Positions 3,403 to 56,462 of a DNA stretch of 64,000 bases are shown in pieces. The notes under the pieces are model-generated. The model was not told the DNA's origin and did no database searches. It was given only the letters and a program-made list of their open reading frames with translations. The position numbers were made by a program, and so were the translations under genes. The DNA is from a virus (Duplodnaviria > Caudoviricetes): positions 1 through 64,000 of the IMG/VR virus record IMGVR_UViG_3300014205_000181; one strand, 5' to 3'. Position 1 is the first letter of the stretch; each line of letters opens with the position of its first letter.

Positions 3403-3432
3403 CTTATCGGCATAATGTATGCAATACTTTAA
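3403..3432 (-). promoter_or_regulatory. sigma28/FliA-like promoter
   Basis: TTAAAGTATTGCATACATTATGCCGATAAG (TAAA-N16-GCCGATAA). Confidence 0.75.
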
Positions 3433-4232
3433 CATTATTTTGGTTAGTGGACAAATTATTTTACATTATCAACGAATTGATAACGGAAGTACGCGACTCT
3501 TCTTAGCCAAGCGGCTTATTTTATGCGCTAGCGATTTAAGGATGCCAATGCAACCCACATTATCAAATTATTAATAAATCTGTTTCAGTCCCTTAATCTC
3601 ATTTTCTAGACTCACTGATTTTTCTTTGATTCCATTTTCTTCGTCCATAGTGGTAAAACTAGGGCAGTCAAGATCATAAACTCTTACATCTAAAATTTCA
3701 TCGGAGTGAACTGCCTGAACTATACCCCCTTCAATATGGATAATTACCCTTGTCATTTTCTTCCCTCTATTTAGTGGTGGGCCATTTTCATCTTCCCCGG
3801 CCCAGATAATCCGTCCAGATAATCCGTTCATAAATTCTCCTTATAATGACTTCTGGATTTCAGAACGTAAGCGTTCTACTTCCCCAGCCCAATAAGACAA
3901 ACCGTGAAAATCAACGTTGCTGTTTGCGTGTTCAACTAGCCATATTACACTCTTTTTCGCATATTCCAGTTTTTCTATCAACGTGTTCATAAATTCCTCC
4001 TTTATATCCTTAAAGCTTGTCGCTATGATGATAAGATCCTTCTCCTAAATAAACCCTATCCCCATTGCTCCATTCGGAACTAAGAGCTTTACAAGTCAAT
4101 CCTTTTCCTAATTGGACTTGTGCAACAAAAGCGGAAACTGATACGCCATAAATATCTATATAAATAAATTCAGTTCCTTTCATAGCTAGGACTTCTTCAG
4201 GTGTAAGATCGTTCATTTTGTTCTCCTTATTT

Positions 4233-4544
4233 TTAATCATTCATTTGTTTTGTACAAAGAACATACCACATATCTCTGAATTCAGAGATAACAACCCCTG
4301 TATTATGCCTATTGGAATATTGCGGATATTCATAAGCGTTCAGAATAATAGTCTCGAACAATTTACTCCCATTTGCTGCTTGGATTAGACTTGAAAGGGG
4401 GACGCCTTGTTGTCTTGCGTGCATTGCTTTTTCGGCATAAATAGAAACATGACGACAAAAACTCTCATTGCTTTCCGCAAAAGAATTTGAATAAGTAAAA
4501 ACTGTCAAAATGATAATTACTATTTTTAAAGTTTTCATCGTCAT
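4233..4544 (-). CDS. Hypothetical secreted protein
   Basis: N-terminal signal peptide ending SFA. Confidence 0.55.
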   Translation of the reverse strand: MTMKTLKIVIIILTVFTYSNSFAESNESFCRHVSIYAEKAMHARQQGVPLSSLIQAANGSKLFETIILNAYEYPQYSNRHNTGVVISEFRDMWYVLCTKQMND

Positions 4545-4575
4545 CCCCTTGAATTGGAATTAACCTATTACAGCT

Positions 4576-4604
4576 ATTGTACAAAACTCTTAATGCTTTG
4601 TCAA
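4576..4604 (-). promoter_or_regulatory. sigma70 early-type promoter
   Basis: TTGACA-17-TACAAT; spacer contains TTAAGAGTTTTG. Confidence 0.75.
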
Positions 4605-4694
4605 CGTTTTATTTCTCCCATCTCGGTCTTGAAGTACTGCAACCATTCAGTCAGGGCAATCTCTTACATCATCGAGAAATATTTTCATTTTAAT

Positions 4695-5000
4695 CTACTT
4701 TAATTTATTTTCAATTAGTTCTTCAATCCCTTCTGTCAACTCTCTTACTTTTTCTTCAAACGGATCTAGAATATCATTTTTCATCTCTTGAACCATTTTC
4801 TTAGCTTCTTTTTCTACCAACCCATCGAATTCTTCCTCTAGTCTCGACAACGCTTTTTCTGGATTTATTTCTACTCCATTTATCTGCATTGTAATAACTC
4901 TCGGGATGCTCTTTATCTCTTCCGTTATATCTATTCCAGACAATGCAGAAATCATAAACCAATGATGAAATGATTTTGTGTCAGTAAATTTATTTTCCAT
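4695..5000 (-). CDS. Hypothetical protein
   Basis: ORF with AGGAGG RBS. Confidence 0.6.
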   Translation of the reverse strand: MENKFTDTKSFHHWFMISALSGIDITEEIKSIPRVITMQINGVEINPEKALSRLEEEFDGLVEKEAKKMVQEMKNDILDPFEEKVRELTEGIEELIENKLK

Positions 5001-5156
5001 TTAATCCTCCTTTAATTATTATTCCAATAATCTGAGATGAATTTCATTTGTTCGGCGTATGCTTCACACCATGACATCAATCCGGGTTGAGGATCAGAAA
5101 GAAGAGAATTTAAAATCTTAACCCTATCTTGAAGGTCCATAAATTTAACTGTCATT

Positions 5157-5366: not shown

Positions 5367-5375
5367 AGTTCTCTC

Positions 5376-7080: not shown

Positions 7081-7108
7081 TTGTGTTCTCCTTTTCAAAT
7101 TATGGTAT

Positions 7109-10546: not shown

Positions 10547-10575
10547 TTAAAGTTTCCTTTGTTTATACCGATAAG
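10547..10575 (+). promoter_or_regulatory. sigma28/FliA-like promoter
   Basis: TTAAAGTTT...ACCGATAAG (TAAA-N15-ACCGATAA). Confidence 0.7.
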
Positions 10576-12333: not shown

Positions 12334-12363
12334 TTAAAGTTTTCTCTTGACTAATCCGATAAG
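12334..12363 (+). promoter_or_regulatory. sigma28/FliA-like promoter
   Basis: TTAAAGTTTT...TCCGATAAG (TAAA-N16-TCCGATAA). Confidence 0.7.
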
Positions 12364-12369
12364 GTGCTT

Positions 12370-12677
12370 AATGTAACGGATTAGTCTTTTACAGAAACGG
12401 TTTCTTATCCAGCGTTCTTTACTCCGTGACCCGCCATGAGGTCTAAAAAGTAGCCTGAGCAGGTTTTATTCATGGCAATAAATTTTTATCCGCCCTTATG
12501 TGTACGGACCGGGGATGTTAATTATTAATAAGCAAATAGCTGAAAGTAATTGACGAAAACAAGTAGAGTGAAATGGGACTCGTAAGAGTATTAGGAATAT
12601 TTGTTCCTCCCCTGGGGTCTGACCAGCCTTAAATTGGTACTTGATAAAGGATACAAAGTTTTCTTAACCGTTTACAT
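12370..12677 (+). ncRNA. Putative structured non-coding RNA (~310 nt)
   Basis: No ORF in the track; ATGTAACGG at the predicted start pairs with CCGTTTACAT at 12668-12677; internal helices GCCATGA/TCATGGC, GACC-GGGGA/TCCCC-GGTC, GCAAATA/TATTTGT, ACTC-GTAA-GAGT. Confidence 0.55.
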
Positions 12678-12770
12678 ATTATTGTTTTCTGTTAAGTTTT
12701 ATTTAGTAAGGGTGAAAAGTATAGGAGCTTGATTCTATACTCCCCTGAAAACTACGGTCCCGAAAAAGGT

Positions 12771-13103
12771 TTAAAATAAAACACCCCTCCTAATTGCTTC
12801 CGCCCCTGCGAATCTATTCAACCATTTAATCCCTACTGCAATATATCTTGGCTCACTGTAATAAACCATATTGCTAAACCCTCTTTTCATATACGCTGAG
12901 GGATGCGCTATTGCTTCGCCCGATTTTGTGTAATATCCCCTTAGCCTTTCCGCTCCGACAATATGAGGTTTCTTACTCCCGTTGACCGCAATCACGTTTA
13001 AATGATTAATATTATCGCCTGCAACCCGCACCATCCGTTTTATTTCTTTTCTTACTATCTCAGCATCATGTTTGTTTAAGTACTGCTCAATTGTAATATT
13101 CAT
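12771..13103 (-). CDS. Hypothetical protein
   Basis: 110-aa ORF in the orientation of its neighbours. Confidence 0.55.
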   Translation of the reverse strand: MNITIEQYLNKHDAEIVRKEIKRMVRVAGDNINHLNVIAVNGSKKPHIVGAERLRGYYTKSGEAIAHPSAYMKRGFSNMVYYSEPRYIAVGIKWLNRFAGAEAIRRGVLF

Positions 13104-13261: not shown

Positions 13262-14629
13262 CTAGAGATTCAGCTTCCTTGTAATCTCTTTTCCAGAATC
13301 TGAAGTACTAGCATTCCTGTAGTGCTTCGCTTGTTCCATAGTGCGCTTAATATCATCCTTTCGGGTTTTTTGCATTGTGGGCATGCTTGCAATAATTTCC
13401 TCTATCTCTTCAAAGTGTGAATCCTTCGCAAGTTGTTCAATTTCCGCCCCGGTCCATTGTTCCAGTTTTGAAGCAATACTGCAATCTAATTTTGAATTGT
13501 GCTTTTTGTTCATAATCTCGATGATTGCTTTTCTCTCTTGAAGATTAGGAAAGCCAACAAAGAAAATTGCATCCCAACGCCCAGGACGTAGAAATTCAGG
13601 CGGCAAAGAAGATAGATCATTGCTTGTCGCTACAATGACGCTATCACTTGCCCGGTCATTAAACCATGAAAGGAAATGTCCCACTTGTCCCTTGCTTGTT
13701 CCTGAATCCCCAGAACCCATAGAAAGCATTTTCTCTATTTCATCAAGCAAGACGACACACTTACCAATAGAGTCAACGGTTTTTGTGAATAGCCGGGTTT
13801 TCTTTTCGGTCTCTCCGACAAGTCCGCCCTTCATTGCTCCAGCATCCGCTTGGATAAGGTCCGCCTGCATGATGTTAGCCAACGCCTTTGCAAAGAGGCT
13901 TTTTCCGCATCCTGGTACTCCTACCAGCAGAATAGAACGCAAGCGCGGCATGTGTTCATTGCCTGGATCAAACGCTTTCATTCTAGCCGACAAGAAACGT
14001 TTTGCTTCTTCCATGCCGCCAACGCTTTCCATATTTTCAGGACGTGCAATACTCATAAAACCAGTTTTCTCGATCAGGGCTTTACGGGCAGACAAAACGC
14101 CCTGCCTTGTAATTTCTTTTGTCTCGATTGCCTGGAGAGCAAGACTGTTTTCGGTTTCCTCATATCCTAAACCTAGACAAGAGCAAGCAATATCGTTTTC
14201 TATCGGTAAACCGTATTGCTTGAAATTCTCTACCATTCCCTGAAATGCAGACAAAGACGGCAAAGAATAATCAATATGGTGGAAAATCTTTTTCAGAGTA
14301 TCCGGCAATTCTGCATCCGTGCCAACACAAACAATGCAGACTTGTTTATTCTTCAATGCCTGATAGGTGTTAAGGATCATTTGTTGTATTTCTTTTTTCT
14401 CGAAAAACCAGTTAATATTTTCGCAGATGATAACAGTCTGGGAAAGAGTTTTGGCGTATTCGAGAAGCTCCGCAATGTCCTTGTATTCGCCTTGTATACC
14501 TTCCAGCGGGTTCCACTTCAGAATGGGGAAAGAATCGCCCGTAGTAATGTCTTGAACGGCTCTTTTAATTTCGAGCGTTTCAATACAGACAAGAGGGACA
14601 CCTGCTTTTATGTAGTTTGTGAGATTCAT
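13262..14629 (-). CDS. AAA+ ATPase (Ycf46-like)
   Basis: GVPGCGKS, VLLDEIEK, ATSN, LRPGRWD; likely start MNLTNY. Confidence 0.88.
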   Translation of the reverse strand: MNLTNYIKAGVPLVCIETLEIKRAVQDITTGDSFPILKWNPLEGIQGEYKDIAELLEYAKTLSQTVIICENINWFFEKKEIQQMILNTYQALKNKQVCIVCVGTDAELPDTLKKIFHHIDYSLPSLSAFQGMVENFKQYGLPIENDIACSCLGLGYEETENSLALQAIETKEITRQGVLSARKALIEKTGFMSIARPENMESVGGMEEAKRFLSARMKAFDPGNEHMPRLRSILLVGVPGCGKSLFAKALANIMQADLIQADAGAMKGGLVGETEKKTRLFTKTVDSIGKCVVLLDEIEKMLSMGSGDSGTSKGQVGHFLSWFNDRASDSVIVATSNDLSSLPPEFLRPGRWDAIFFVGFPNLQERKAIIEIMNKKHNSKLDCSIASKLEQWTGAEIEQLAKDSHFEEIEEIIASMPTMQKTRKDDIKRTMEQAKHYRNASTSDSGKEITRKLNL

Positions 14630-14918
14630 TTTGTAGCCTCTTTGTCTAAATGATGTTTGACTAATTTCCAGATATAACCATGCTTGCCTTCTGGGGTACA
14701 TGTTTTCCCCGTACAACAGTGAGAACAAACAAGCATTGAACAACCTTTGCAAGCATGGTTTGCGGGATGATATGGAGTGTCATCCCTTACCAGCTCAAAA
14801 CAATTCCCATCTATATCTATGTATGCTGTATCACTCATTTTGTTCCCCTTTCTTTGTTTTAATTATAAACTCCACAAAGGGGATGTTTCTCAATTCATCC
14901 CCTCAAGCAATCTACAAT

Positions 14919-18110: not shown

Positions 18111-18182
18111 TTTACAAGATTTTATATTTTTGAACCAGTATTTTACACTATGATATATTTTCACATTATATTACATTATTTG

Positions 18183-18211
18183 TTAAAGTTATCTGAAATT
18201 ATGCCGATAAG
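18183..18211 (+). promoter_or_regulatory. sigma28/FliA-like promoter
   Basis: TTAAAGTTATCTGAAATTATGCCGATAAG (TAAA-N15-GCCGATAA). Confidence 0.8.
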
Positions 18212-18240
18212 GTATTATAACTAATTTAACCGGAGGTAAT

Positions 18241-18417
18241 ATGAACAAAGAAGAATTTGATACAAAGAGAAAAGAACTTGGTTGGTCAAAGAGAGAATTA
18301 GCAAATCGTCTTGGGATTACGGAGAGAACGATTCATGGGTACATGGCTGGAAACAAGATTCCCCAAACCGTTGAATATCTTTTCAATATGTTATATTTAA
18401 AACATGGAGGTCAATAA
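18241..18417 (+). CDS. XRE-family HTH protein (58 aa, not in the ORF track)
   Basis: MNKEEFDTKRKELGWSKRELANRLGITERTIHGYMAGNKIP; GGAGG RBS; TAATG overlap with the next gene. Confidence 0.85.
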   Translation: MNKEEFDTKRKELGWSKRELANRLGITERTIHGYMAGNKIPQTVEYLFNMLYLKHGGQ

Positions 18418-19235
18418 TGGAACAAATACCAGAGGCTTATTTAATATCAGCGGGTATATCTAAACTAACCGGAGAATCAAAATATCACGGACAAAAGAAA
18501 CACCCACTATATGGAAGATGGATGAGAATGAAGAGAAGATGTTACGATACAAACAATAAAAGCTATAAGAGTTACGGAGCGAAGGGCGTCTATGTTTGTA
18601 ATGAATGGTTACATGATTTTAAACCATTTTACGATTGGTGCATGGATAATGGGTATTCTCAAGAATTAGATATTGATAGAATTAATCCATGTGGCCCGTA
18701 CTCACCATGTAATTGTCGGTTCATAACTAAATTTGAAAATTCTCAGAATAAAAGAAAGAAAACTGATTATAGAGGAGTTTCGTTTAATAAAACTAAAAAT
18801 ATATATTCTGGAACATTAACATTAAACCGAAGCGTTATTTTTAGAAGAAACTTTAAAGACGAATTAAGAGCGGCGATTATGAGAGATAAATTTATTGCAC
18901 AGAATAATCTCCCGCACGAAATGAATTTTCCAGAAAGAAGAGATGAATTTGTAGTAGGACCAAAAGTTAAAGCGTTTAGTACTAGAAAATCATCTGGGTT
19001 TACAATTCATGGATTATCAAAGTCCCCTATACACAAAAGATGGGATCTGATTAAAAAGAGACGCAACGAAACTAAAGGACGAATAACTATCTGTGAAGAA
19101 TGGGATAAAAATTTTATGTCATTTTATAATTGGTCAATAGAAAATGGGTTCGACGAAAAATTAGCACTATTTAGAAAAGATATAAGTTTAGGATATTCAC
19201 CGGATAATTGTGAATATAAAGAAATGGTATATTAA
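18417..19235 (+). CDS. HNH-type homing endonuclease with an AP2-like domain
   Basis: HPLY.RW..MKRRC...YG.KGV.VC.EW...IDRI...YSP.NCRF; YRGVSF. Confidence 0.8.
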   Translation: MEQIPEAYLISAGISKLTGESKYHGQKKHPLYGRWMRMKRRCYDTNNKSYKSYGAKGVYVCNEWLHDFKPFYDWCMDNGYSQELDIDRINPCGPYSPCNCRFITKFENSQNKRKKTDYRGVSFNKTKNIYSGTLTLNRSVIFRRNFKDELRAAIMRDKFIAQNNLPHEMNFPERRDEFVVGPKVKAFSTRKSSGFTIHGLSKSPIHKRWDLIKKRRNETKGRITICEEWDKNFMSFYNWSIENGFDEKLALFRKDISLGYSPDNCEYKEMVY

Positions 19236-23571: not shown

Positions 23572-23600
23572 ATTATAATCACGATGTTTTGAAATGTCAA
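23572..23600 (-). promoter_or_regulatory. Consensus sigma70 promoter
   Basis: TTGACA-17-TATAAT. Confidence 0.8.
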
Positions 23601-23862: not shown

Positions 23863-23892
23863 TTAAAGTTTTATATTAATTATGCCGATAAG
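23863..23892 (+). promoter_or_regulatory. sigma28/FliA-like promoter
   Basis: TTAAAGTTTTATATTAATTATGCCGATAAG; 32 bp identical to 25281-25312. Confidence 0.8.
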
Positions 23893-25282: not shown

Positions 25283-25312
25283 TTAAAGTTTTATATTAAT
25301 TATGCCGATAAG
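25283..25312 (+). promoter_or_regulatory. sigma28/FliA-like promoter upstream of the packaging genes
   Basis: TAAA-N16-GCCGATAA. Confidence 0.8.
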
Positions 25313-25549
25313 TACAATTAGTAAATAGGAGGTTTTAAAAAATGTAATGAAAAATTCATTCGAAGATGATTCAAAATTTAAAGACATTCTAGAAAGACTA
25401 GAAACTGAAGTCAATTCATTTCAAGAAGAGATTATAAAACTAGACGAATTAGTTGATTATTTTCCAGAATTAGCCGTAGAAGCTACAGTAAAAAAAGACC
25501 AGCTTGAAGAAATAATTGAAAAAATTCAAGAGATAATTGAAGATTATTC

Positions 25550-26269
25550 ATGAAAACCAAAAAAGTAAAAGTTATCACGACTGATTTAAGCACGGACTTA
25601 GATACCGAACAACCACAAAATCCAGCAACATATTCTGACTATATTCAAGAAACAGAAGATATGATAAATAGCACTGATTATAGTGCTGACGAATTTAACC
25701 AAGCAATAAAAATTATTCAATCAATAACCGATGCAGATGAATTGCCTTGGAAGGTTCAAAGATTCTGCTCTGAATATGTTGTCCACTACGATGGACAGAA
25801 ATCAGCTATAAAGGCTGGATGGCCAGAATGGAATGCTAATACATTTGCAAAAAGGTTATTATCTCATCCAAGAGTCCGAGCAGAAATTGAACGCCTTCAA
25901 AAAAATGTAGCGACTAAACTTCAGATTACTCAAGAACGAGTCCTAGAAGAAATTGCACATATGGCCTACGGGAACGTTGCAAATTTTTATGATGAAGAAG
26001 GTGTATTAATTCCTGTTCATAAATTAGAGAAACATATTAGTGCCAGTATTCAGGATATGGTCTATGATAGAGGCGGAAGATTACTAGGTTATAAACTAGC
26101 GGCGAAGAGTGTTGCCCTTGATGCCCTTTCTAAGACACTTGGTATATTCGATAAAGGTTCAGATAGAACTCTCCCAGTTGATTTAAAACAATTCCTCTCC
26201 ATGTTGCCACAAGAATTGCAAGAAACCATCCGCGTGGGATTAGCCAAACGCATTTCAAATAAGAAATAA
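25550..26269 (+). CDS. terS: Terminase small subunit
   Basis: RFCSEY..YDGQKSAIKAGW...AKRLL.HPRV...ITQERVLEEIA.MAY; position upstream of terL. Confidence 0.85.
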   Translation: MKTKKVKVITTDLSTDLDTEQPQNPATYSDYIQETEDMINSTDYSADEFNQAIKIIQSITDADELPWKVQRFCSEYVVHYDGQKSAIKAGWPEWNANTFAKRLLSHPRVRAEIERLQKNVATKLQITQERVLEEIAHMAYGNVANFYDEEGVLIPVHKLEKHISASIQDMVYDRGGRLLGYKLAAKSVALDALSKTLGIFDKGSDRTLPVDLKQFLSMLPQELQETIRVGLAKRISNKK

Positions 26270-26458
26270 TATGCTAGATTATTTAATTCATGTATCTAAA
26301 ATAGAATACGGTAGTACGGCTTATTACAGGTCATTCTTTATTTCTGAAAATAAAATAGAACCACTTTGTAATTGTAAAAATGGACATCAAGACCATTCTG
26401 ATGCTTTGTACTGTAAAAAAGCAGTTAAGAAAGGTATAGAATATGTTGTGAATTGTGT

Positions 26459-32903: not shown

Positions 32904-35552
32904 ATGACTGTAAATAAAGCATTTGCGTATATTAAAAAAGATGATTCTTTGGATTCTGAGCGTAGTATTATTTGCTATGCTTCTACTAATAGCGTTGATC
33001 GTCATGGAGATATGATCTTGCCTACGGCATGGTCCGAAAAAGGCATGAAGAATTACCGTAAGAATCCGGTAATTTTGCTTAATCATGACTACCATAATAC
33101 ATTGCCTGTTGGTAAATCTTTATGGCAGAAGACTGATGATAAAGGGTTAAAATTTAAAATCCAGTTTGCCGATACGGATCTAGGAAGGGAATTATATTAC
33201 CTATATTCTGGTGGCTATATGTCAAGCTTCAGCGTGGGTTTTCGTCCAGTGAAAACGTATGATAATGAAGATACTAAAAAATATAAGGATGAAGATGGTA
33301 ATATTCCCCATACAGTTTATGAAGAATGTGAACTATTAGAATTATCAGCCGTAAATTTGCCTGCAAATGCCGATGCTAACATGATTAGAACCGTAAAAGG
33401 GTTAGTAGAACAAGAAAAAGGTGGGTTTGTAAAATCTAAAGAATTGATTGATTTTATTGGCGGTATCAAGAGTTCAAAAGAATATATTGAATTAATTTCT
33501 GAGGACGAAGCAAAAGAAGCTCCACAAGAAAAAGCGAAAATTGTAGGGCATATCGATTTAGATTTTGACAATAAATATGTGAATGAAGATGAAATGATGA
33601 TTATTCCACTTAAAAAGAAATATGAAGATTGTGAAAATAAATGCGATAGTTGTAAAGATTGTAATAACGAAGAATTAACTGGAATTGTTGAAGAACCCGT
33701 TGAAGAAAAGTCACAAGATGATACTGATATCCAAGAGAAGGCTGAAGAGAAAGCAAAGAAACCATGTAAGAAAGAAGACGGCTGTGATGGTGAGTGCATT
33801 GGCGATGAATGTGATGAGTATGATTCATGTGATGAAGAAATGAAGAAACAATTCGTTGAGGTTTCTATTAATAAAGAAGTTATAGAGGAGATTACCGAAG
33901 AAAAACAAATTGAAGAAGTTGTTGAAACGGAAATCAAATCAGAATTGGATGAAATTATTGAAGATTCAATTAAAGAATTAGAAGAGGAAAATATAGAAAT
34001 AAAAGACACTTCTTACATTCAAAAAACGATTGATTTGTTTAATTCTTTAAATATTAAAAATATTACTCCAGAAATGAAAGAACAAATCAAAAAACAATAC
34101 GGAGAAGAGTTTGATATTTCAAGTGTAAAAGTAGAACCATATGGTTTTGAATATAAAATTTTCTGTAAGTTCCTTGGTTGTAAAGTAAAAGAAATTTTTA
34201 CTAATGACTTTTTTATTCCTACTGTAGAAAGAGGGAATTACCTTTCTGCCATTAAGACTGTGTTAAAAGATGCAACTCTCCTTGATCAAAGGGCATTTAC
34301 TCAAAATGGTTGCGAAGTTCCGCTTAAATATAGCACTATTAAATTAAATTCAAAAAGATCAGATGAATTTTTAATTACCGGGACTCAATTTTATAAATCC
34401 ACTGATGGTGAATCATTCATCCTTCAATTCTACCCTGTCTGGGGAGGAATGATAGCAGATATCTATTGTTCAAAAGACAAAAATAAAATAGCAAAATCAT
34501 TATTTGTTGATTCTGTTAAGTGGGTAGAAAAAAATAATTTTCTTAGAGGTGAAAAATTTTCCGTTAGCGGTGAATTTTTAGAAAGAAAATTATTTGAATG
34601 GGATGATGTAATTTATTCAAGTGATAAAGATAAAGAGACTATCAAGAAGAATGTTGAGAAGTTGTCAGAAACCTCTCCTAGTCGGGGGATGATGCTTGTT
34701 GGCCCTCCAGGAAACGGCAAAACTACCCTCGGCAAAGTTATGATGAATAAAATGGATTCAACATTTATTTGGGCTAGTTCAAAAGATTTTGAATGGGGTG
34801 CGGATTATACATTAGGTATTGGCTTTGAGATGGCTAGAAAATTAGCCCCCGCTGTATTTTTTATTGAGGATATTGATGGTTGGTTAAATGCTTATACTGT
34901 TGATCTTCTCAAGACAGAAATGGATGGTATTAGAGACAATAAAGGCGTTCTTACTATCTTAACAAGTAATTTCCCCGAAAATATGCCAGATGCATTGATT
35001 GATCGCCCAGGCAGATTCCATCATATTATAAATTTTTCTTTACCAAATAAAGAAAATAGAATAAAATTATTAAAGTTTTTTACTGAAAATGCCGATAAGG
35101 AAAGTATAGAAAAATTTGCAGATATGACAGAAGGATATAGTGGTTCACATCTAAGAGAATTAGTAGATTTTGCAAAAATGATTTCCGAAGATGAAGAAAT
35201 TTCAATAGACGAAGCATTAATGAAATCGTTTGAACAAATGAAAGAGCAAAGACAATTAATCCATGATATTAAAAATGAACCGAAGAAGAAAGAATTTATT
35301 GATATCGAAACTGTAGAAGTTAAAGATTCTAGTATTGATTTTGAAATTAAAAATACTGAAGAGGAAACGGTAATTAAAGAAACGATTGATTTTGAGATTA
35401 AAGAAACTAAACAAAGTGTAGATTTTAATATTACTAAAGAAGAGGCTCAAGAGATAATTAAAAATTCAATTATTAATGTAGCACAAGAAATGCAATCGAT
35501 TGAAGACTTAGTTGATGAAAGAATTAAAAGAGCAAAGGGTATTATTTTTTAA
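32904..35552 (+). CDS. HK97-family prohead protease fused to an AAA+ ATPase
   Basis: aa1-165: DRHGD, NPVILLNHD, PVGK, FSVGF, LLELSAV..PAN; C-terminal half: GPPGNGKT, FFIEDID, TSN, RPGRF, YSGSHLRE. Confidence 0.9.
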   Translation: MTVNKAFAYIKKDDSLDSERSIICYASTNSVDRHGDMILPTAWSEKGMKNYRKNPVILLNHDYHNTLPVGKSLWQKTDDKGLKFKIQFADTDLGRELYYLYSGGYMSSFSVGFRPVKTYDNEDTKKYKDEDGNIPHTVYEECELLELSAVNLPANADANMIRTVKGLVEQEKGGFVKSKELIDFIGGIKSSKEYIELISEDEAKEAPQEKAKIVGHIDLDFDNKYVNEDEMMIIPLKKKYEDCENKCDSCKDCNNEELTGIVEEPVEEKSQDDTDIQEKAEEKAKKPCKKEDGCDGECIGDECDEYDSCDEEMKKQFVEVSINKEVIEEITEEKQIEEVVETEIKSELDEIIEDSIKELEEENIEIKDTSYIQKTIDLFNSLNIKNITPEMKEQIKKQYGEEFDISSVKVEPYGFEYKIFCKFLGCKVKEIFTNDFFIPTVERGNYLSAIKTVLKDATLLDQRAFTQNGCEVPLKYSTIKLNSKRSDEFLITGTQFYKSTDGESFILQFYPVWGGMIADIYCSKDKNKIAKSLFVDSVKWVEKNNFLRGEKFSVSGEFLERKLFEWDDVIYSSDKDKETIKKNVEKLSETSPSRGMMLVGPPGNGKTTLGKVMMNKMDSTFIWASSKDFEWGADYTLGIGFEMARKLAPAVFFIEDIDGWLNAYTVDLLKTEMDGIRDNKGVLTILTSNFPENMPDALIDRPGRFHHIINFSLPNKENRIKLLKFFTENADKESIEKFADMTEGYSGSHLRELVDFAKMISEDEEISIDEALMKSFEQMKEQRQLIHDIKNEPKKKEFIDIETVEVKDSSIDFEIKNTEEETVIKETIDFEIKETKQSVDFNITKEEAQEIIKNSIINVAQEMQSIEDLVDERIKRAKGIIF
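35070..35099 (+). promoter_or_regulatory. sigma28/FliA-like promoter inside the protease gene, upstream of the capsid gene
   Basis: TTAAAGTTTTTTACTGAAAATGCCGATAAG. Confidence 0.7.
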
Positions 35553-35979
35553 AGGATATTTATGAATAAATATTATGGTCGTAGATGTATGGGACATTAT
35601 GTAAAATGTGATGATATTCCTAGTTTATTCAAACCAACAACTGTTGGTCGTTCAATTAAAATAGTACATGGCATTCCTGATGATTCGCAATTGATTGATC
35701 TAGTAATTCAAGATGGATATGATGGGAAAGAGTGCATGTTTGTGTTTGAAAGTGAAGAATTCGACGTATTTGAATATGGGGCAAAATCACTTCCTGGTAT
35801 TTCGGTTAGATATAGTTATTATACAATTAAAGAGTGATTTTTTAAATAAAACATAAATTATGGTTATACATCCTCAGTATAAAATATACCAAAAATCACT
35901 AAGGATGTCAAGAAAATTGCTGGAGATACTTTAGAGGTATTAGGCGATTATTAAAATAAAATATTTGGAGGAATTAAAT

Positions 35980-37227
35980 ATGGAAAAAAGTGAATTTGAA
36001 GCACTTGTAAAGGACACTACTACTGAAGCCGTTAAGGGTATTATGGATGCTAATAACGAGAAGCTTGCGGACGTTATTGATGCTAAGATCAAGGAAGCGG
36101 TAGTTGATGTAGAGAAGCGGATTGTGGTAGGGAAGGAAGAAATGGAAAAGGATAAGAAAGCTGGGTTTAAATCATTTACTCATTTTTGTGTAGACATCGC
36201 AAAGGCCTCTGCGTCTGGTTTTCGTAAAGTAAGTTCTGAACTCGAGAAATGGGAAACTCATTGCACTAAAGCTGCTGGGTCTCCTTCTCAGAATGTTTCT
36301 GATGGTGAAGCTGGTGGTTATCTTGTTCCTGAAGAGTTTCGTCAGAACCTCCTAGTTGCGACTAGAGAAAAAAATGAGTTCATGTCCCGTTGTACTCAGA
36401 TTCCCATGCAGAGTAATGTAGTTAAAATCCCCTATGTAAATGGCTTCGATAAATCAGGGAATCTTGTATATGGTAATGTAGCTTGGCAGTGGACCCAAGA
36501 AGAAGAAGATTTCACCGCTAAAAACGTGAAGTTCGGTTATATTAACCTTGCTCTTCATAAGGTAACTGGTATGGCTTACGTTTCTGATGAGATTCTTCGG
36601 TTCTCTCCTATGAGTATGGAGAACATCCTTCAAGAAGGATTTATTGATGGATTTAATTATGAAATGAACCGGGTTATTCTTAAAGGAACAGGAGCTGGCC
36701 AACCGCAGGGCATTCTTTCGGCCCCTGCAACTATTAGTATTGCTGCCGAATCTGGGCAAACGTCCACTCAGATTCTTTGGGAAAACGTGATTAAGATGTA
36801 CGCTCGTTGTATCAATCCCGCAAATGCAATTTGGATTGCTAATCCAAATACCCTTCCTCAATTAGCTTCTATGAGCCTTGCTATAGGAACAGGCGGAATT
36901 CCTGTATTTATGCCTGCTGGGGGAGCTGCCGGTCAGCCTTATGCAACTCTATTTGGTCTTCCCCTTGTATTTAGCCATCATGCTAAGTCTTTGGGTACTG
37001 CTGGAGATTTAGTCCTTGCTGATATGAAACAGTATCTCTTGGGTATGCTTGCTGGCGATGAAGGTATGAGATTTGATACTTCTATGCATATTAAATTTGA
37101 AACGGACCAGCAGGCTTTCCGTTTTGCGTTCTATGTGGCCGGACAGAGTTGGATGCCAACATACCTTACTCCTCCTGAAGCTACGTCTGACACTCTTTCT
37201 CCGTTTATTATGATTGCCACTCGGTAA
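35980..37227 (+). CDS. Major capsid protein (HK97 fold)
   Basis: GGYLVPEEF, GTGAGQPQGIL, TLFGLP; N-terminal delta-like domain. Confidence 0.93.
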   Translation: MEKSEFEALVKDTTTEAVKGIMDANNEKLADVIDAKIKEAVVDVEKRIVVGKEEMEKDKKAGFKSFTHFCVDIAKASASGFRKVSSELEKWETHCTKAAGSPSQNVSDGEAGGYLVPEEFRQNLLVATREKNEFMSRCTQIPMQSNVVKIPYVNGFDKSGNLVYGNVAWQWTQEEEDFTAKNVKFGYINLALHKVTGMAYVSDEILRFSPMSMENILQEGFIDGFNYEMNRVILKGTGAGQPQGILSAPATISIAAESGQTSTQILWENVIKMYARCINPANAIWIANPNTLPQLASMSLAIGTGGIPVFMPAGGAAGQPYATLFGLPLVFSHHAKSLGTAGDLVLADMKQYLLGMLAGDEGMRFDTSMHIKFETDQQAFRFAFYVAGQSWMPTYLTPPEATSDTLSPFIMIATR

Positions 37228-39048: not shown

Positions 39049-39123
39049 AGCGGGTTGGAGAAGTAGGAACTCGTCAGGCTCATATCCTGAAGATCATAGG
39101 TGCAAATCCTATACCCGCTACCA
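39049..39123 (+). tRNA. tRNA-Met (CAT), initiator-like
   Basis: AGCGGGT/ACCCGCT acceptor; TCAGG-CTCATAT-CCTGA; encoded CCA. Confidence 0.88.
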
Positions 39124-39145
39124 ATATCAATAGAGGATTTAAAAT

Positions 39146-39412
39146 TTGGGAAACGAATACGTTAAAGTCAAATTCCTTTCAGATTGGATGGGTCATCCCG
39201 AAGGTTCCACCCTAACAATCATGAAGGTAAAAGCGAATGAATTAAAGGCGAGGAATATTATTAAACTAGTTGATACAGTTGATTCTAAATCTTTGATTGA
39301 TTTAAATAATAAGATTAAAGAAGAAATTAAAAACCTTGATTCTCCGCCTATGAATAAAATGATAGATTCCCCTCAAATTAAAAAATCTAGTGGTAGACCG
39401 AAAAAGAAGTGA
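39146..39412 (+). CDS. Hypothetical head-region protein
   Basis: ORF between tRNAs; basic C-terminus GRPKKK. Confidence 0.55.
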   Translation: MGNEYVKVKFLSDWMGHPEGSTLTIMKVKANELKARNIIKLVDTVDSKSLIDLNNKIKEEIKNLDSPPMNKMIDSPQIKKSSGRPKKK

Positions 39413-39421
39413 ATTGATTAT

Positions 39422-39499
39422 CTGTGTGTAGCTCAGTCTTAGTAGAGTAACCGCCTTGGACGCGGGAAGTCGGAGGTTCGAATCCTCCCACCCAGACCA
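39422..39499 (+). tRNA. tRNA-Pro (TGG)
   Basis: CTGTGTG/CACCCAG acceptor; loop CTTGGAC; GTTCGAAT; CCA. Confidence 0.85.
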
Positions 39500-39520
39500 T
39501 AATAGAATAGATTTTTAACG

Positions 39521-39596
39521 GCTGGATTAGCTCAGTTGGTAGAGCATCTGCCTTGTAAGCAGGCGGTCACGGGTTCGATGCCTGTATCCAGCTCCA
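39521..39596 (+). tRNA. tRNA-Thr (TGT)
   Basis: GCTGGAT/ATCCAGC acceptor; loop CTTGTAA; GTTCGA; CCA. Confidence 0.92.
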
Positions 39597-47626: not shown

Positions 47627-48045
47627 GTATAAGCGAATTAGCAACAGGGGTATATAATTATTCACAAGTAGCGAGTAATTTTAAAACGAGTATCAATGGT
47701 AGGGTTTATCAAGTTCGTGCTCCTCAAAATCCTACATATCCATTTGTTATATTCTTCTTCCCTGTCGATACCATTACGCATTTTATGAACGAACAAGCTG
47801 TAGCGGCAAATGCAGTATTAAATATTAGTTTACAGTTTAATATTTATTCTCAAAATCAGTCCACAAGTGAAATTAATACCATAGATGGATATTTAACGGA
47901 TAGATTTGATTTCGCTAACTTAACTGTATCTGGATATTATTGCTTTGATTTGTATAGAACTCATAAAATCCCCCCTATGTGGGTAGAAGACATCCAAGGT
48001 TATATTTCTTCCGTAATTTATCAAGTGCAATTACAAAAAAATTAA
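47623..48045 (+). CDS. Tail terminator (DUF3168-like)
   Basis: GRVY..RAPQ...YPFV; QFNIYS; synteny. Confidence 0.75.
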   Translation: MSISELATGVYNYSQVASNFKTSINGRVYQVRAPQNPTYPFVIFFFPVDTITHFMNEQAVAANAVLNISLQFNIYSQNQSTSEINTIDGYLTDRFDFANLTVSGYYCFDLYRTHKIPPMWVEDIQGYISSVIYQVQLQKN

Positions 48046-48070
48046 AGTTTCTGCAATTTTTACCGATAAG
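48042..48070 (+). promoter_or_regulatory. sigma28/FliA-like promoter at the start of the glycan cluster
   Basis: TTAAAGTTTCTGCAATTTTTACCGATAAG (N15); the ATG lies ~7 nt after the -10 box, so the mRNA may be leaderless. Confidence 0.7.
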
Positions 48071-49362: not shown

Positions 49363-50220
49363 ATGAAAATTTTGGTCTTAGGTGCTAGTGGGATGCTTGG
49401 CAGTTCTATGCTAAATGTAATGAGCGAAAATAAAAAATTAGATGTATTCGGAACAGTAAGGGGAAAATCAGATAAGAAATTTTTTACCCAACAAATCCAA
49501 GATAAAGTTCTCCATAACGTAAATATAGAAAATGAAAATACATTAAATGGATTGTTCGTTTCTTTAAAGCCAGACGTAGTTATTAATTGTGTTGGGATAG
49601 TAAAGCAAATTGATGACGCGAATAGTCCGTTAAAATCTATAGCTATAAATTCTTTGTTCCCCCATAAATTGAAATCATTATGCGATTCTTTTGATTCTAG
49701 GTTAATACATATCAGTACAGATTGTGTATTCTCTGGTAAATATGGGATGTATAAAGAAGAAGATGTCTCTGACTGTACAGATTTTTATGGCAAGACTAAA
49801 TATTTAGGAGAGGTTATTTCAGATAGATCGTTAACGATAAGAACCTCTATAATTGGCCCAGAGTTAAAAACGAACCATGGATTACTTAACTGGTTTTTAA
49901 GTCAAGGAAAAGAATGCAATGGGTATAGCAATGCGGTTTTTAGTGGTTTCCCAACTGTAGTATTGTCCCAGATATTAAGAGATATCATTATTCACGATGA
50001 GTCGATTAGTGGGTTATATAACATTGCTTCTGAAAAAATTTCAAAATTTGATTTACTGAGATTAATAGCTGATATTTATAAAAAAGATATTAAAATTAAT
50101 GACTATAAAGATTTTACAATCGATAGGTCTTTAGATGGTTCTAAATTTAATTTAAAGTCTGGGTACATAACTCCTAATTGGGAAAGCATGATTAATACAA
50201 TGAGAGGTATTAATGTTTAG
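49363..50220 (+). CDS. RmlD-like NDP-4-keto-6-deoxyhexose reductase (QnlA/WbvR type)
   Basis: GASGMLG, HISTDCVFSG, YGKTK, IRTSIIG; no C-terminal cupin. Confidence 0.88.
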   Translation: MKILVLGASGMLGSSMLNVMSENKKLDVFGTVRGKSDKKFFTQQIQDKVLHNVNIENENTLNGLFVSLKPDVVINCVGIVKQIDDANSPLKSIAINSLFPHKLKSLCDSFDSRLIHISTDCVFSGKYGMYKEEDVSDCTDFYGKTKYLGEVISDRSLTIRTSIIGPELKTNHGLLNWFLSQGKECNGYSNAVFSGFPTVVLSQILRDIIIHDESISGLYNIASEKISKFDLLRLIADIYKKDIKINDYKDFTIDRSLDGSKFNLKSGYITPNWESMINTMRGINV

Positions 50221-51223
50221 TAACAAAACGGTATTAATAACAGGTGGAACGGGATCATTTGGGAGCGTTGTCGCGAAACGGTTACTGACTAACAACGTAA
50301 AAGAAGTTCGGATATTTAGCCGCGACGAAAAGAAACAAGAAGATATGAGAATCTCGGTGAACGATGCGAGATTGAAATTCTATATTGGTGATGTCAGAGA
50401 TTACGGTAGTGTTGATTCTGCGATGATAGGGGTCAATTATGTATTCAATGCCGCCGCACTTAAGCAAGTACCTTCATGCGAATTTTTCCCAATGGAGGCG
50501 ATAAAAACCAATGTTATTGGTGCCGATAATGTGATGAGTTCTGCAATAAAGAATAATGTAGAGCGGGTTGTTATTTTAAGTACTGATAAATCTGTTTATC
50601 CAATTAATGCAATGGGCATGACGAAAGCTATTTCTGAAAAGGTAATGGTCTCAAAGGCGATGAAACAACGTGCTGGAGAAACGGTATTATGTGCTACTAG
50701 ATATGGTAATGTAATGGCTTCCCGTGGATCTGTAATTCCCTTGTTTGTATCTCAATTAAAAAATAATGAGGAATTAACGGTAACAGACCCAGATATGACA
50801 AGATTTCTTATGTCCTTAGACGATTCAATAGATTTGGTATTTTATGCTTTGATAAATGGTGGACAAGGTGATATTTTTGTTCAAAAGTCTCCAGCATCGA
50901 CCGTGGGTGTTTTGGCCCAAGCATTAAAAGAAATGTTTGCAAAAGATAATAATATAAAAATTATTGGAACTCGACACGGAGAAAAATTATTTGAATCACT
51001 TATTTCAAGGGAAGAGATGGTAAGAGCCGTTGATCATGGGGATTATTATTGTATTAATCCGGATAATAGGGATTTAAATTATAATAAGTATTTCGATTCA
51101 GGAAATACGAATATTGATAAGATACAAGATTACACTTCACATAATACTACTAGATTGAGCATTGAAGAAACTAAAGAATTGTTGTTTTCATTGGATTATA
51201 TTAAGGAAGAGTTGAATGCTTAA
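50213..51223 (+). CDS. fnlA: UDP-GlcNAc 4,6-dehydratase/epimerase (FnlA/WbjB/CapE)
   Basis: GGTGSFG, SRDEKKQ, AALKQVPSCEFFP, STDK, RYGNVMASRGSV, MTRF. Confidence 0.92.
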   Translation: MFSNKTVLITGGTGSFGSVVAKRLLTNNVKEVRIFSRDEKKQEDMRISVNDARLKFYIGDVRDYGSVDSAMIGVNYVFNAAALKQVPSCEFFPMEAIKTNVIGADNVMSSAIKNNVERVVILSTDKSVYPINAMGMTKAISEKVMVSKAMKQRAGETVLCATRYGNVMASRGSVIPLFVSQLKNNEELTVTDPDMTRFLMSLDDSIDLVFYALINGGQGDIFVQKSPASTVGVLAQALKEMFAKDNNIKIIGTRHGEKLFESLISREEMVRAVDHGDYYCINPDNRDLNYNKYFDSGNTNIDKIQDYTSHNTTRLSIEETKELLFSLDYIKEELNA

Positions 51224-53178: not shown

Positions 53179-54004
53179 AAGAAATATTTTTTTATTTAAG
53201 GCAGAAGGAAAAGAAAATTTCGGAGAATACTTATGTAAGAGTGTTATACAAAAGATGGGGTTTGGACTTAATAATTATTCTAATGTTAACCAGATAACAG
53301 AACCAATTGATTATATAATGACTGGGATAGGTGGATTTCTAAACAATGAAATCCATTCTTTATATTTAACTAAAGCCAAGAAGTGGTATGTGTGGGGTAG
53401 CGGAGTTCATTGCATTCCTTTACCTTGGCATAAATTATCGGAAGACATCATAAAGAACAAATGTATTATAACTGCTTTAAGAGGTCCGATGACCAGGGAT
53501 TATTACGGGATCAAAGATGATATTACACTAGGTGATGCTGGCTACTTAGCTTCTTATTTTTTTAAATTCCCAGTAAATGAGAAGAAGAAGAATGTACTCA
53601 TTAATCATCATTATGATAATGTTAAAAAACCGATGAAAGGAATAGATATTCATATATCGTCTTTGATGGACTCAGACATTAATGGTTCTTTTGACAATCA
53701 GTTTAAATACATATTGAATAGTATATGTAACGCAAATATAGTAATGACTAGCTCTATGCACGTAGCTATAGTTGCTTATTCTTATGGTATTCCCTTTGCA
53801 ATGGTAGCCAAGAGAGAGACTGATTTAGTTAAAGAGTGGAAGTGGCATGATACATTATTGAATATGGGCATAACAAAGAAAATAGTATTGTGTGAGAGTA
53901 TAGAAGATGGTTGGGCTTGGTGGAACAGTGTTCAGAAAGATATACGTCCAATTACTAAAGAATATCAGGGAACAATAATAAAGGCATTTCCCGTAATACT
54001 ATGA
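53171..54004 (+). CDS. Polysaccharide pyruvyltransferase-like protein
   Basis: NFGE, WGSG, LRGP.T, GD, TSSMH...AYSYGIP. Confidence 0.8.
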   Translation: MTKRNIFLFKAEGKENFGEYLCKSVIQKMGFGLNNYSNVNQITEPIDYIMTGIGGFLNNEIHSLYLTKAKKWYVWGSGVHCIPLPWHKLSEDIIKNKCIITALRGPMTRDYYGIKDDITLGDAGYLASYFFKFPVNEKKKNVLINHHYDNVKKPMKGIDIHISSLMDSDINGSFDNQFKYILNSICNANIVMTSSMHVAIVAYSYGIPFAMVAKRETDLVKEWKWHDTLLNMGITKKIVLCESIEDGWAWWNSVQKDIRPITKEYQGTIIKAFPVIL

Positions 54005-54822
54005 AGTGTTATTTAGCATATTCAGCAAATCCAGATGTAAGACATAAAGCGTCAACTGGGGGATTTTGCAAAGAATTTTTACGTTTTTGCATAGAGGGGA
54101 AAATAATAGATAAGTCAATACTAACAATTCTTGGAGAAGGAGAAGAAGCTTTAATCCCAAGAACTATAATTACTGATGATATAGAGAAGATAATGTCTAC
54201 GAAGAGTAATTCTATATATGATAAAACTAATCCATTATCCATTTTATCTAGTTTGAATAAAAACGAAAGTTATATTTTTGTAGGTTTGCCATGTCATATT
54301 TACTCAGTTAAAAAATATTGCAGCAAACACAATATCCGAATTATAACAATATCTTTATTCTGCAATCATACATCAGACAATAAATATTATAAAAGTGTTT
54401 TAGATAAAGCAAACCTGAGTGAAATAGATGTAAAACATTTCGAATATAGAGGATCTGGATGGCCTGGGTTTGAAAAAATAATTACCAATGAAGACCAGGA
54501 AATTAAGATTGACCATATAGAGGGATGGGATAATTATGTAAAAAAATATATGCAAATGCTACCAAAATGCAAGGTGTGCACCAGAATGATTTCGGAAGAA
54601 GCAGACATATGTGTTGGCGATGCATGGATGCAAAAAGTATTAAATAACGATAGCAATGGAACTAATATGGTTGTGGCGATGACCACAACAGCGGATAAAC
54701 TTGTAATGGATTGTTGTAAAAGTGGATATATTCATATTGAACATTTAGATATATCTGAATTTGAGGCCCAGAATAATAGGTCTGTTAAAATTAAGAAAGA
54801 TAGAAGAGAGGCTTATGAATAG
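54001..54822 (+). CDS. F420 hydrogenase/dehydrogenase beta-subunit (FrhB)-like Fe-S protein
   Basis: ASTGG, FVGLPC, LFC, YRGSGWPG, CKVC...ADICVGDAW. Confidence 0.8.
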   Translation: MKCYLAYSANPDVRHKASTGGFCKEFLRFCIEGKIIDKSILTILGEGEEALIPRTIITDDIEKIMSTKSNSIYDKTNPLSILSSLNKNESYIFVGLPCHIYSVKKYCSKHNIRIITISLFCNHTSDNKYYKSVLDKANLSEIDVKHFEYRGSGWPGFEKIITNEDQEIKIDHIEGWDNYVKKYMQMLPKCKVCTRMISEEADICVGDAWMQKVLNNDSNGTNMVVAMTTTADKLVMDCCKSGYIHIEHLDISEFEAQNNRSVKIKKDRREAYE

Positions 54823-55675
54823 CTGGAGTATGTCGATCCCTAAGGTTCTCAATTTGTATTGGGGTAAAAATAAACCATTATCTTTTATGAAGTACCTGAC
54901 CGCTTTATCTTTTGTGAAACATAACCCAGATTGGGAGATAATAGTTTATTACCCATCTGTGGTAGAAAGTAAAATATTGTGGGATAGCAATGAACAAAAA
55001 GAATATAATTATGATGACATTGATTATTTTGATAGATTAAGTAATATTAAAAATTTATCTTTAAGGAAAACCGAGTTTGGTGAATTTTCAAACTTATCAG
55101 AAGTACATAAATCAGATCTCATTAGGCTTAAAATATTATCAACATCAGGTGGGGTTTGGTCAGATTTTGATATTTTTTATACAAAATCGATTAATGAATT
55201 CGATCTAAATAATACTGACAATAAATTAAAAGATACATTTGTTTGCTTCACTAGTTATCATAGTATCGGGTTTTTAATGAGTTCTGGGAATAATAAATTC
55301 TTTGAAGAACTATATAAAATGGCAATATATAATATAAAAAATGCTGAAAATCTACAATACCAAAATTTAGGTAGGGATTTATATAATTATTTTTTTAAAT
55401 ATAATGATTATAAAGCGATTAATTATTCAATTAAATTCAATTGTAACATTGCAAACATTACATTTGAAACGGTATATCCACTACAATGGAACCAGATAGA
55501 TTTAATATTTGGCGATAACAAACAGCGATTACCAGAAAATACAGTTGGCGTACATTGGTTTGCTGGATCTCCAATAACATCTAGTGTAGAGAATAAAATT
55601 ACAGAAGAAAATATCCACCTTAATAAAGATAAATTCCTTCTAAAACTAATGTGTGAATTACTTGAAGAAATATAG
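54815..55675 (+). CDS. DXD glycosyltransferase (GT32-like)
   Basis: IPK...YW, KSDLIRL..L..SGGVWSDFD, VHWFAG. Confidence 0.85.
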   Translation: MNSWSMSIPKVLNLYWGKNKPLSFMKYLTALSFVKHNPDWEIIVYYPSVVESKILWDSNEQKEYNYDDIDYFDRLSNIKNLSLRKTEFGEFSNLSEVHKSDLIRLKILSTSGGVWSDFDIFYTKSINEFDLNNTDNKLKDTFVCFTSYHSIGFLMSSGNNKFFEELYKMAIYNIKNAENLQYQNLGRDLYNYFFKYNDYKAINYSIKFNCNIANITFETVYPLQWNQIDLIFGDNKQRLPENTVGVHWFAGSPITSSVENKITEENIHLNKDKFLLKLMCELLEEI

Positions 55676-56462
55676 TATTGTGTTTCCTTATTATAAAAGA
55701 TCTAGTCAACTCCATAATTCACTTATTTCGTTCCAACATCACTATAAAGATAGAAATGATTATGAAGTAATTGTCGTTGAAGATATTAAAAACTATAATA
55801 ATGCAGAAGAACACGAAAAACTATTAAAAGTATTAAAGTTTTATACACAAAATGCCGATAAGGTAGTTAATATAAAACTGATAAAATCGAGCTTTGAGAA
55901 TTGTTATAATCCAGCTCCTTTATTTAATTTAGGAGTGAAAAACGCTAGTGGCGAATATTTAATTATAACAAATCCAGAGATATTCCATAAAGATAATATA
56001 TTGAGTGCATGTGATGATATATTGTCTAAATACGATGACCATTATATAGTATTTTCTTGCCTTAATGTTGATGAGTATCCTAAAAGTGTATCTGATTTTG
56101 ATGAATTTACTTTTAAACCAAAAATGTGGTATCAACATTTAAAATATAGAAATGCTTTATTCCATTTCTGTTCCTGCTTGTCGAAGAGACAGTATGAAGA
56201 AATTGGGGGATTTGATGAAATATATTCATTAGGTATTGCATACGATGATGACGATTTCAGAGAAACAATAAATAAAGCAGGGATTCAATTCATAGCAACT
56301 GATTCATTTTTAACATTGCATCAAGATCATGGAAGTGTGTTTGATAAATTGCCTGATTATGAAAAGAGATTGAATAGAAATAAAGCGTTGTATTATTTGA
56401 AGAAGCAAAATAAGTCAAGTGAGTATATTAACCAATTTTTAGGAGAGAATTTTGGTGGATAA
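55653..56462 (+). CDS. GT2-family glycosyltransferase
   Basis: SIVFPYY, YEVIVVED, N.GV..A.G, IGGFDE, YDDDDF. Confidence 0.85.
   Translation: MNYLKKYSIVFPYYKRSSQLHNSLISFQHHYKDRNDYEVIVVEDIKNYNNAEEHEKLLKVLKFYTQNADKVVNIKLIKSSFENCYNPAPLFNLGVKNASGEYLIITNPEIFHKDNILSACDDILSKYDDHYIVFSCLNVDEYPKSVSDFDEFTFKPKMWYQHLKYRNALFHFCSCLSKRQYEEIGGFDEIYSLGIAYDDDDFRETINKAGIQFIATDSFLTLHQDHGSVFDKLPDYEKRLNRNKALYYLKKQNKSSEYINQFLGENFGG
55833..55862 (+). promoter_or_regulatory. sigma28/FliA-like promoter inside the GT2 gene, upstream of the major tail gene
   Basis: TTAAAGTTTTATACACAAAATGCCGATAAG. Confidence 0.7.

Follow-up and report, generated by a model that had tools for sequence, protein, structure and literature searches.

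Predicted sigma-28-type promoters across the genome of a large uncultured tailed phage

Phages are known to have their genes transcribed by using the housekeeping sigma factor of the host, by remodelling that factor, or by bringing a sigma factor or an RNA polymerase of their own. SPO1, with gp28 and gp33/34, and T4, with gp55, are phages in which phage-encoded sigmas run phage regulons. In T4, sigma appropriation by AsiA and MotA, and in a Thermus phage, promoter switching by gp39, remodel that housekeeping factor, and the -10 element stays of the sigma-70 type (PMC3950348). Here we describe what appears to be a different arrangement in a stretch of viral DNA of 64,000 nucleotides (positions 1 to 64,000 of IMG/VR record IMGVR_UViG_3300014205_000181; hereafter the window), which forms the first 64 kb of a 144,548-bp phage contig (C1; 35.1% GC) within a 301-contig, 3.7-Mb assembly from a landfill sample. 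In particular, C1 carries 14 sites that we predict to be promoters of the sigma-28 (FliA/SigD/WhiG) class, a class whose consensus is TAAAGTTT-n11-GCCGATAA and for which transcription from the Escherichia coli aer promoter starts 6 bp after the -10 octamer (PMC2859248, PMC7286023; aer, PMC2859248). Like the class 3 flagellar promoters that depend on FliA in E. coli, Salmonella and Pseudomonas, on SigD in Bacillus subtilis and on WhiG in Streptomyces, the C1 sites combine TAAAGTTT and GCCGATAA (in C1 with 11 or 12 nt between them) and lie co-oriented upstream of genes (PMC2859248, PMC7286023).

A reading of the window from its letters alone (the sequence-only reading) had listed nine copies of a bipartite motif. 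All nine are present, with the listed coordinates beginning one base early, at the T before TAAAG. Each carries TTAAAGT and CCGATAAG, in the form TTAAAGT(T/A)(T/A)-N11/12-(G/A/T)CCGATAAG, and the spacer between the two octamers is 11 nt in three of the sites and 12 nt in six. The pattern TAAA-N14-17-CCGATAA has 11 matches in the window, compared with 0.37 +/- 0.65 expected, and 0 of 100 shuffles reached 11; the motif is therefore commoner than in shuffled sequence. CCGATAA alone occurs 20 times, compared with 7.8 expected. (Candidates at 44721 on the - strand and 50502 on the + strand were rejected as members; both are intragenic, are without TAAAGT and reach less than 18 bits.)

Five further sites lie on C1 beyond the window, which brings the set to 14. 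C1 has 13 matches to TAAAGT-N13-16-CCGATAA and the remaining 3.57 Mb of the assembly one, and a reversed control pattern has a single match in the whole assembly. On a position matrix the 14 sites score 30-41 bits, whereas the next best site in the 3.7-Mb assembly, on host contig C52, scores 22.4 bits, and no site falls in between. Note that this matrix was built from the same 14 sites, so that their high scores are built in but the absence of intermediate sites is not. CCGATAA is found in 14 of 14 sites, preceded by G in nine, A in three and T in two (the first position of the GCCGATAA octamer). TAAAG is likewise found in every site, and the -35 octamer TAAAGTTT is complete in ten and one base off in the others; the spacer is 11 nt in five sites and 12 nt in nine. 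Each of the 14 sites has the orientation of the gene that follows it (p = 6e-5), and non-coding DNA, which makes up 11% of the contig, holds at least ten of them (10-12 in all; p = 2e-7 for at least ten), with start codons 7-130 nt downstream at most sites. In the regions upstream of C1 genes, pieces of the sigma-28 motif rank among the most enriched 7-mers, behind Shine-Dalgarno words, and besides these no motif stood out in the upstream regions as a second promoter class. Two pairs of 28-mers are identical, namely 3404-3431 and C1:80751-80778, and the sites at 23864 and 25284.

As a positive control for the promoter class, we searched for the strict motif TAAAGTTT-N11/12-GCCGATAAGG in a set with one genome for each prokaryotic species. 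In flagellated lineages this motif occurs mostly once per contig, ahead of genes for flagellin, FlgK, a rod protein, FlgM-like proteins, MotA, FliD and chemoreceptors, these genes having been recognised by N-terminal sequences from a crude open reading frame (ORF) call and not by family searches. Since the strict motif precedes flagellar genes in many bacteria, the C1 sites are taken to be sigma-28-type promoters. The same motif is present at 53 loci in IMG/VR, about half of which belong to the C1 phage family. C1 has two long relatives, G002 (81 kb) and G003 (74.7 kb). These have 60-70 proteins in common with it, 40-80% identical, and keep sites before orthologous genes, specifically those for the major capsid protein (MCP), the small terminase subunit (terS), the start of the rightward arm, the glycosyltransferase and tail genes, the start of the glycan cluster, a helix-turn-helix (HTH) protein with DnaB, and TnpB. 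When eight orthologous regions were aligned (alignment A2), invariance was confined to ATTAAAGTTT, CCGATAAG and a few isolated single columns, whereas spacers and flanks had drifted, and this box-only conservation holds also for two sites that lie inside coding sequence. Boxes that stay fixed while spacers and flanks drift are the mark that selection on a two-box promoter leaves. Across the C1 family, -35 positions 6-8 are T or A in at least 24 of 26 sites.

The motif is also found in two unrelated phages. G001 (136.8 kb, 41% GC) has nine sites and G005 (50.9 kb, 42% GC) has five by the strict pattern and six by a looser one, and the reversed control pattern is absent from both. Spacers of 11 and 12 nt are split 8 to 18 in the C1 family and 13 to 2 in G001 and G005 together. 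Taken together, the match to the consensus, the flagellar-gene control and the conservation in relatives uphold the assignment of the motif to the sigma-28/FliA type that the sequence-only reading had made.

The sites stand, as had been proposed, before the rightward module, terS and the large terminase gene (terL), the capsid gene, the glycan cluster, the glycosyltransferase and major tail genes, and small HTH genes (Table 1). What is not borne out is the description of this transcription as late, for the same promoter also stands before cassettes of dut and the ribonucleotide reductase (RNR) gene, HTH and DnaB, TnpB, and HTH and HNH endonuclease. Because the sites head structural, replication and selfish-element genes alike, the promoter class is not a late one. 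Filament, motor, chemotaxis and FlgM genes, which define flagellar class 3, are not among the genes downstream of the phage sites. The glycan cluster has its first ATG (48077) 7 nt past the -10 box, close to the expected start point of a sigma-28 transcript, so that the first mRNA of this cluster may be leaderless.

Promoter, Shine-Dalgarno sequence and small HTH gene together form a repeated cassette, present in four copies at window 3190-3470 (- strand), window 18145-18425 (+ strand), C1:80537-80817 (- strand) and C1:140880-141175 (- strand) (alignment A1). In the first of these the ATG of the HTH gene lies 19 nt past the box and is preceded by AAGGAGG. An HNH endonuclease gene follows two of the four cassettes, and the promoter thus seems to travel with selfish genes. 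(The 81-aa ORF after the 10548 site gave no family match.)

Table 1. Predicted sigma-28-type sites, sigma-70-type sites and genes referred to in the text (positions in C1, of which the window is the first 64 kb, unless another contig is given)
Feature	Position	Strand	Details
Predicted promoter	3404..3431	-	TAAAGTAT-N12-GCCGATAA, 34.2 bits; before HTH then HNH genes
Predicted promoter	10548..10574	+	N11, ACCGATAA, 32.1 bits; before 81-aa gene on + strand island
Predicted promoter	12335..12362	+	N12, TCCGATAA; orphan; ~400 nt without ORF, then opposite-strand genes
Predicted promoter	18184..18210	+	37.3 bits; before 58-aa HTH gene (18241-18417) and HNH endonuclease gene (18417-19235; HNH 3e-54)
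Predicted promoter	23864..23891	+	38.7 bits; start of rightward structural arm; ortholog in G002 at 35160
Predicted promoter	25284..25311	+	before 68-aa acidic protein, terS, terL; orthologs G002 34302, G003 21090
Predicted promoter	35071..35098	+	39.9 bits; in 3' part of protease-AAA gene, ahead of 91-aa gene and major head gene; orthologs G002 25350, G003 9910
Predicted promoter	48043..48069	+	N11, ACCGATAA; start of glycosyltransferase cluster; G002 site 17764 at same place
Predicted promoter	55834..55861	+	40.7 bits, best site; inside GT2-like gene 55653-56462, ahead of glycosyltransferase and major tail genes; G002 site 14989 in orthologous gene
Predicted promoter	76232	-	before dut, then RNR
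Predicted promoter	80778	-	before HTH, then 260-aa protein
Predicted promoter	112929	+	before TnpB
Predicted promoter	116156	-	before winged HTH, then DnaB
Predicted promoter	141137	-	before winged HTH, then 374-aa protein
Sigma-70 consensus site	23572..23600	-	perfect TTGACA-17-TATAAT, 12/12 matches; intergenic, points into leftward arm
Sigma-70-like site	begins 23965	+	TTGACA-17-TATTAT; ~100 nt past the 23864 site
XRE-type HTH gene	3199..3384	-	61 aa; first after the 3431 site; PHROG transcriptional regulator 9e-10
HNH endonuclease gene	2519-3199	-	after the 61-aa HTH gene; match 1e-13
Rightward arm	23.8-71.5 kb	+	terS, terL, probable portal, protease-AAA fusion, major head, glycosyltransferase cluster, major tail, long tail genes
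terS	25550-26269	+	family match 2e-17
terL	26453-28180	+	family match 1e-16
Protease-AAA gene	32904-35552	+	
Major head gene	35965-37227	+	family match 3e-45
Glycosyltransferase gene	56452-57135	+	
Major tail gene	57169-57585	+	
Leftward arm	72-144.5 kb, continues 1-23.7 kb	-	RNR with intein, dUTPase, DNA polymerase III (Pol III) alpha, ligase, gp32-like SSB, RecA-like, NAMPT, DnaB, SF2 helicase, RNA ligase, many small genes
RNR large subunit	72413-75670	-	split by intein with LAGLIDADG domain
FliA-like sigma of binned bacterial genome	G000:C20:8591-9223 (L033:8591-9220)		210 aa; followed by two HDOD-HD domain genes

The explanation that we judge most likely, with a confidence a little above even, is that host RNA polymerase with the host's own flagellar sigma-28 reads the 14 promoters. 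Transcription would then be expected to start about 6-8 nt past the -10 box, and phage development would be linked to the motility of the cell. The sequence-only reading had also offered a FliA-like sigma encoded by the phage outside the window, and none was detected on the 144.5-kb C1 or in two relatives. On C1, the models TIGR02479, PF04545 and PF04542, which between them cover FliA/WhiG, region 2 and region 4, found nothing at E<=0.001, phrog_351 found nothing at E<=10, and the ECF superfamily model TIGR02937 picked out at E<=10 nothing but an HTH of 37 residues in a PucR-HTH protein of 410 aa. A hidden Markov model (HMM) of 15 host sigmas, used unfiltered on the ORFs of five phage contigs (1,829 in all), gave no sigma on C1, G002 or G003, and a FliA family search of G002 and G003 was likewise negative. 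In a profile-profile comparison of 154 C1 ORFs with hhalign, the highest probability was 29%, for an HTH of 26 residues; short HTH matches of this kind, in the PucR-HTH protein, were all that the sigma searches detected. The ten large leftward-arm proteins that were scanned (350-1,111 aa), which include RNR, Pol III alpha, ligase, gp32, RecA, NAMPT and DnaB, contain no RNA polymerase, and FlgM had no convincing match in the assembly (best E 0.26) and none on C1. With no detectable sigma or RNA polymerase on C1, host sigma-28 is the most economical reader. Moreover, a protein able to read both canonical octamers would be expected to retain regions 2 and 4 of the FliA type, and the fact that no such protein is found on C1 argues for the sigma-28 of the host. 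(A protein common to the motif-bearing phages was considered as the reader and rejected; C1 shares only the SF2 helicase, Pol III alpha and RNR with G001, and the helicase alone with G005.)

Several observations weigh against this explanation, and some of them would fit a factor supplied by the phage itself, be it a sigma too divergent to be recognised, one encoded on an unassembled piece, or one borne in the virion. We regard such a factor as unlikely, though worth keeping in view. The unrelated nine-site phage G001 encodes, directly after its SF2 helicase gene, a 331-aa divergent sigma-like ORF (L099:15710-16702, + strand, equal to IMGVR_UViG_3300031952_000002 115710-116705) whose matches are to phrog_351 ('RNA polymerase sigma factor'; 6e-6), RpoD structures (8e-6) and Sigma70_r2 (18 bits). 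The FliA model search overlooked this ORF, which makes a very divergent reader on C1 conceivable. The C1 sites, in addition, have conserved family-specific flanks (AT before GCCGATAA and an A-rich stretch upstream), a 12-nt spacer in most cases and no weak members, and such all-or-none site scores are typical of phage-specified promoters; candidate promoters of the binned bacterial genome fit the phage matrix poorly, with 22.4 bits at best. However, the G001 protein stops short of region 4.2, the part that would recognise the -35 box, and has no homologue in C1, G002, G003 or G005. Seven independent searches, by family models, HMM and profile-profile comparison, found no sigma on C1, nor did those made in G002 and G003, and a reader of canonical octamers at canonical spacing should be detectable through its FliA-like regions. 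As to an unassembled piece, the ends of C1 join in frame. Even less credence, in fact very little, goes to the idea that the motif is not a promoter at all but the operator of small phage HTH proteins, or an end or target site of the HTH-HNH and TnpB cassettes. Six of the 14 sites do adjoin small HTH genes, HNH genes or TnpB, and the two pairs of identical 28-mers point to duplication, but the sites are not palindromic, all of them are co-oriented with the next gene, and eight stand before ordinary genes (terS, MCP, tail, dut, DnaB and others). Furthermore, the spacer sequence is free whereas the boxes are fixed, there is one copy per cassette and that on the 5' side only, and the motif equals authentic bacterial flagellar promoters.

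If host sigma-28 is the reader, the question arises of which bacterium provides it. Binning suggests a metagenome-assembled genome (MAG), which is assigned to the Ignavibacteriota by the taxa in the cluster of its FliA-like protein. This MAG has the gene order flhA-flhF-flhG-(88 aa)-FliA-like sigma. The best family and structure matches of the sigma are WhiG and FliA, with 148-158 bits, which is under the curated cut-off; it is without region 3, and its architecture resembles that of an ECF sigma. The flagellin gene of the MAG is preceded by TAAACTTT-N11-TACGATAA, its flagellar contigs hold several further TAAA-N15-nnCGATAA candidates, and a site on C52, TAAAGTTT-N11-ACCGATAA, recurs in a genome of the same genus. 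Together with the similar GC content (35.1% for C1 and 33.1% for the MAG), these features speak for the MAG and against a different host. It is nonetheless conceivable, if rather improbable in our estimation, that host sigma-28 is used but that the host is another flagellated bacterium of the same community. The link to the MAG comes from binning only. A short-word BLAST of C1 against the rest of the MAG returned only a tRNA-like 58-nt match and chance 20-mers, with no CRISPR-like match, and no protein shared by C1 and the MAG exceeds 44% identity. A search of 150 further genomes of the phylum did not turn up the capsid gene of the C1 family, and the strict motif in 300 genomes of the order gave one single hit and no C1-family member. 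A C1-family fragment (L126; DITO01000194.1, 7,146 bp), in which ten C1 proteins are matched and the same promoter-HTH-HNH cassette is found, is binned with an Erysipelotrichaceae MAG, which conflicts with the Ignavibacteriota bin of C1. The sigma-28 consensus, moreover, is common to very many phyla, and the candidate promoters of the MAG differ from the phage sites in spacer (11 nt, versus 12 nt in nine of 14 phage sites) and flanks (CGATAAta, versus an invariant G after CCGATAA).

Taking host sigma-28 as the reader, we tentatively entertain a broader picture, which we would call possible and not yet probable. C1 and its relatives would represent a clade of large uncultured phages without a transcription factor of their own for most of their program, in which replication, packaging, head, tail and virion-glycan genes would be run by the motility sigma of the host. 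Infection would be productive only where the flagellar checkpoint had released sigma-28, the promoter would be a portable part of homing endonucleases and TnpB, and G001 and G005 would have reached the same promoter independently.

The site at 12335 differs from the others in that no gene follows it on its own strand. The sequence-only reading had placed a putative non-coding RNA there, for which we find no support, as the region has no Rfam match, a folding z of -0.04 relative to shuffled sequence and no conservation in relatives. The orphan promoter points across window 12363-12770 at opposite-strand genes (12771-13103, and an AAA ATPase gene at 13262-14752), and may give an antisense transcript.

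The early genes had been proposed to use sigma-70 promoters. Strong sigma-70-type matches concentrate on the leftward strand in the 1-24 kb region, and candidate sites in this leftward early-type region fit the idea. The enrichment is only mild (15 matches versus 8.4 +/- 3.1 expected). To judge from these matches, the small early-type genes of this block are probably transcribed from a few sigma-70-type promoters. Between the two arms lies a divergent control region, with the sigma-70 consensus facing leftward and, facing rightward, a sigma-28-type site followed by a sigma-70-like site.

C1 is a large tailed phage with two arms of opposite orientation (Table 1); the portal gene in the rightward arm is assigned as probable from its position only. 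No terminal overlap of the contig was found. A leftward ORF that is cut at the start of C1 (window 1-286; C1:144276-144548) gains 27 codons to a stop when the ends are joined, and the genome is thus probably complete or nearly so; the assembly may be a closed circle without overlap. Megablast of 20 kb of C1 against deposited phages gave no close relative, and terL as a single query against IMG/VR gave no match. In tblastn with the capsid protein, relatives were all at or below 37% identity, so that no host can be deduced from them. Three phage tRNA genes (Met-CAT, Pro-TGG and Thr-TGT) lie at window 39049-39596 (+ strand), and the tRNA-Thr is 86% identical over 58 nt to MAG contigs C16 and C286, presumably to tRNA genes.

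Between the 25284 site and terS lies a gene for a 68-aa very acidic, helical protein (25347-25553, + strand), conserved in G002, G003 and two other loci; its sub-threshold match to FliS (18.5 bits, cut-off 26.7) is probably a compositional effect. Within the glycan cluster, an FnlA/PseB-like dehydratase (50213-51223, + strand) is 36-49% identical to products of genes that lie a few kb from sigma-28 promoters in three bacterial loci (L140, L191 and L214; Burkholderiaceae and Pseudoalteromonas). There are thus hints that the phage glycan island may be related to flagellin-glycosylation islands.

A full-text literature search brought up no description of a phage regulon based on sigma-28 promoters, and the novelty here is that of a known promoter class in an undescribed role. 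If our explanation is true, a lytic-type phage with the host flagellar sigma-28 consensus as its main promoter class would represent a fourth strategy, next to use of the housekeeping sigma, its remodelling, and a sigma or polymerase of the phage's own, and phage development would be coupled to the physiological state of the host (motility and FlgM export). The motif, whose consensus C1 shares with E. coli and B. subtilis, could then be used as a signature to predict, from sequence, which uncultured phages have flagellated hosts.

Like the regulons run by the sigmas of SPO1 and T4, the C1 promoters are near-identical, genome-wide and conserved within a phage family; unlike them, they come with no sigma gene found on C1 or its relatives, and their consensus is of a host class and not private to the phage. 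C1 resembles T4 with AsiA/MotA and the Thermus phage with gp39 in being a phage without a detected polymerase of its own that would exploit host RNA polymerase, but its -10 element, GCCGATAA, calls for a sigma-28-type region 2, and no remodelling factor was identified. Finally, in contrast to class 3 flagellar promoters, the spacer of the C1 sites is mostly 12 nt long, their -10 box is always followed by G and their flanks are specific to the family, they are present as 14 near-consensus copies in 144.5 kb compared with about one in the 3.57-Mb host bin, and they serve packaging, head, tail, glycan, replication and homing-nuclease genes.

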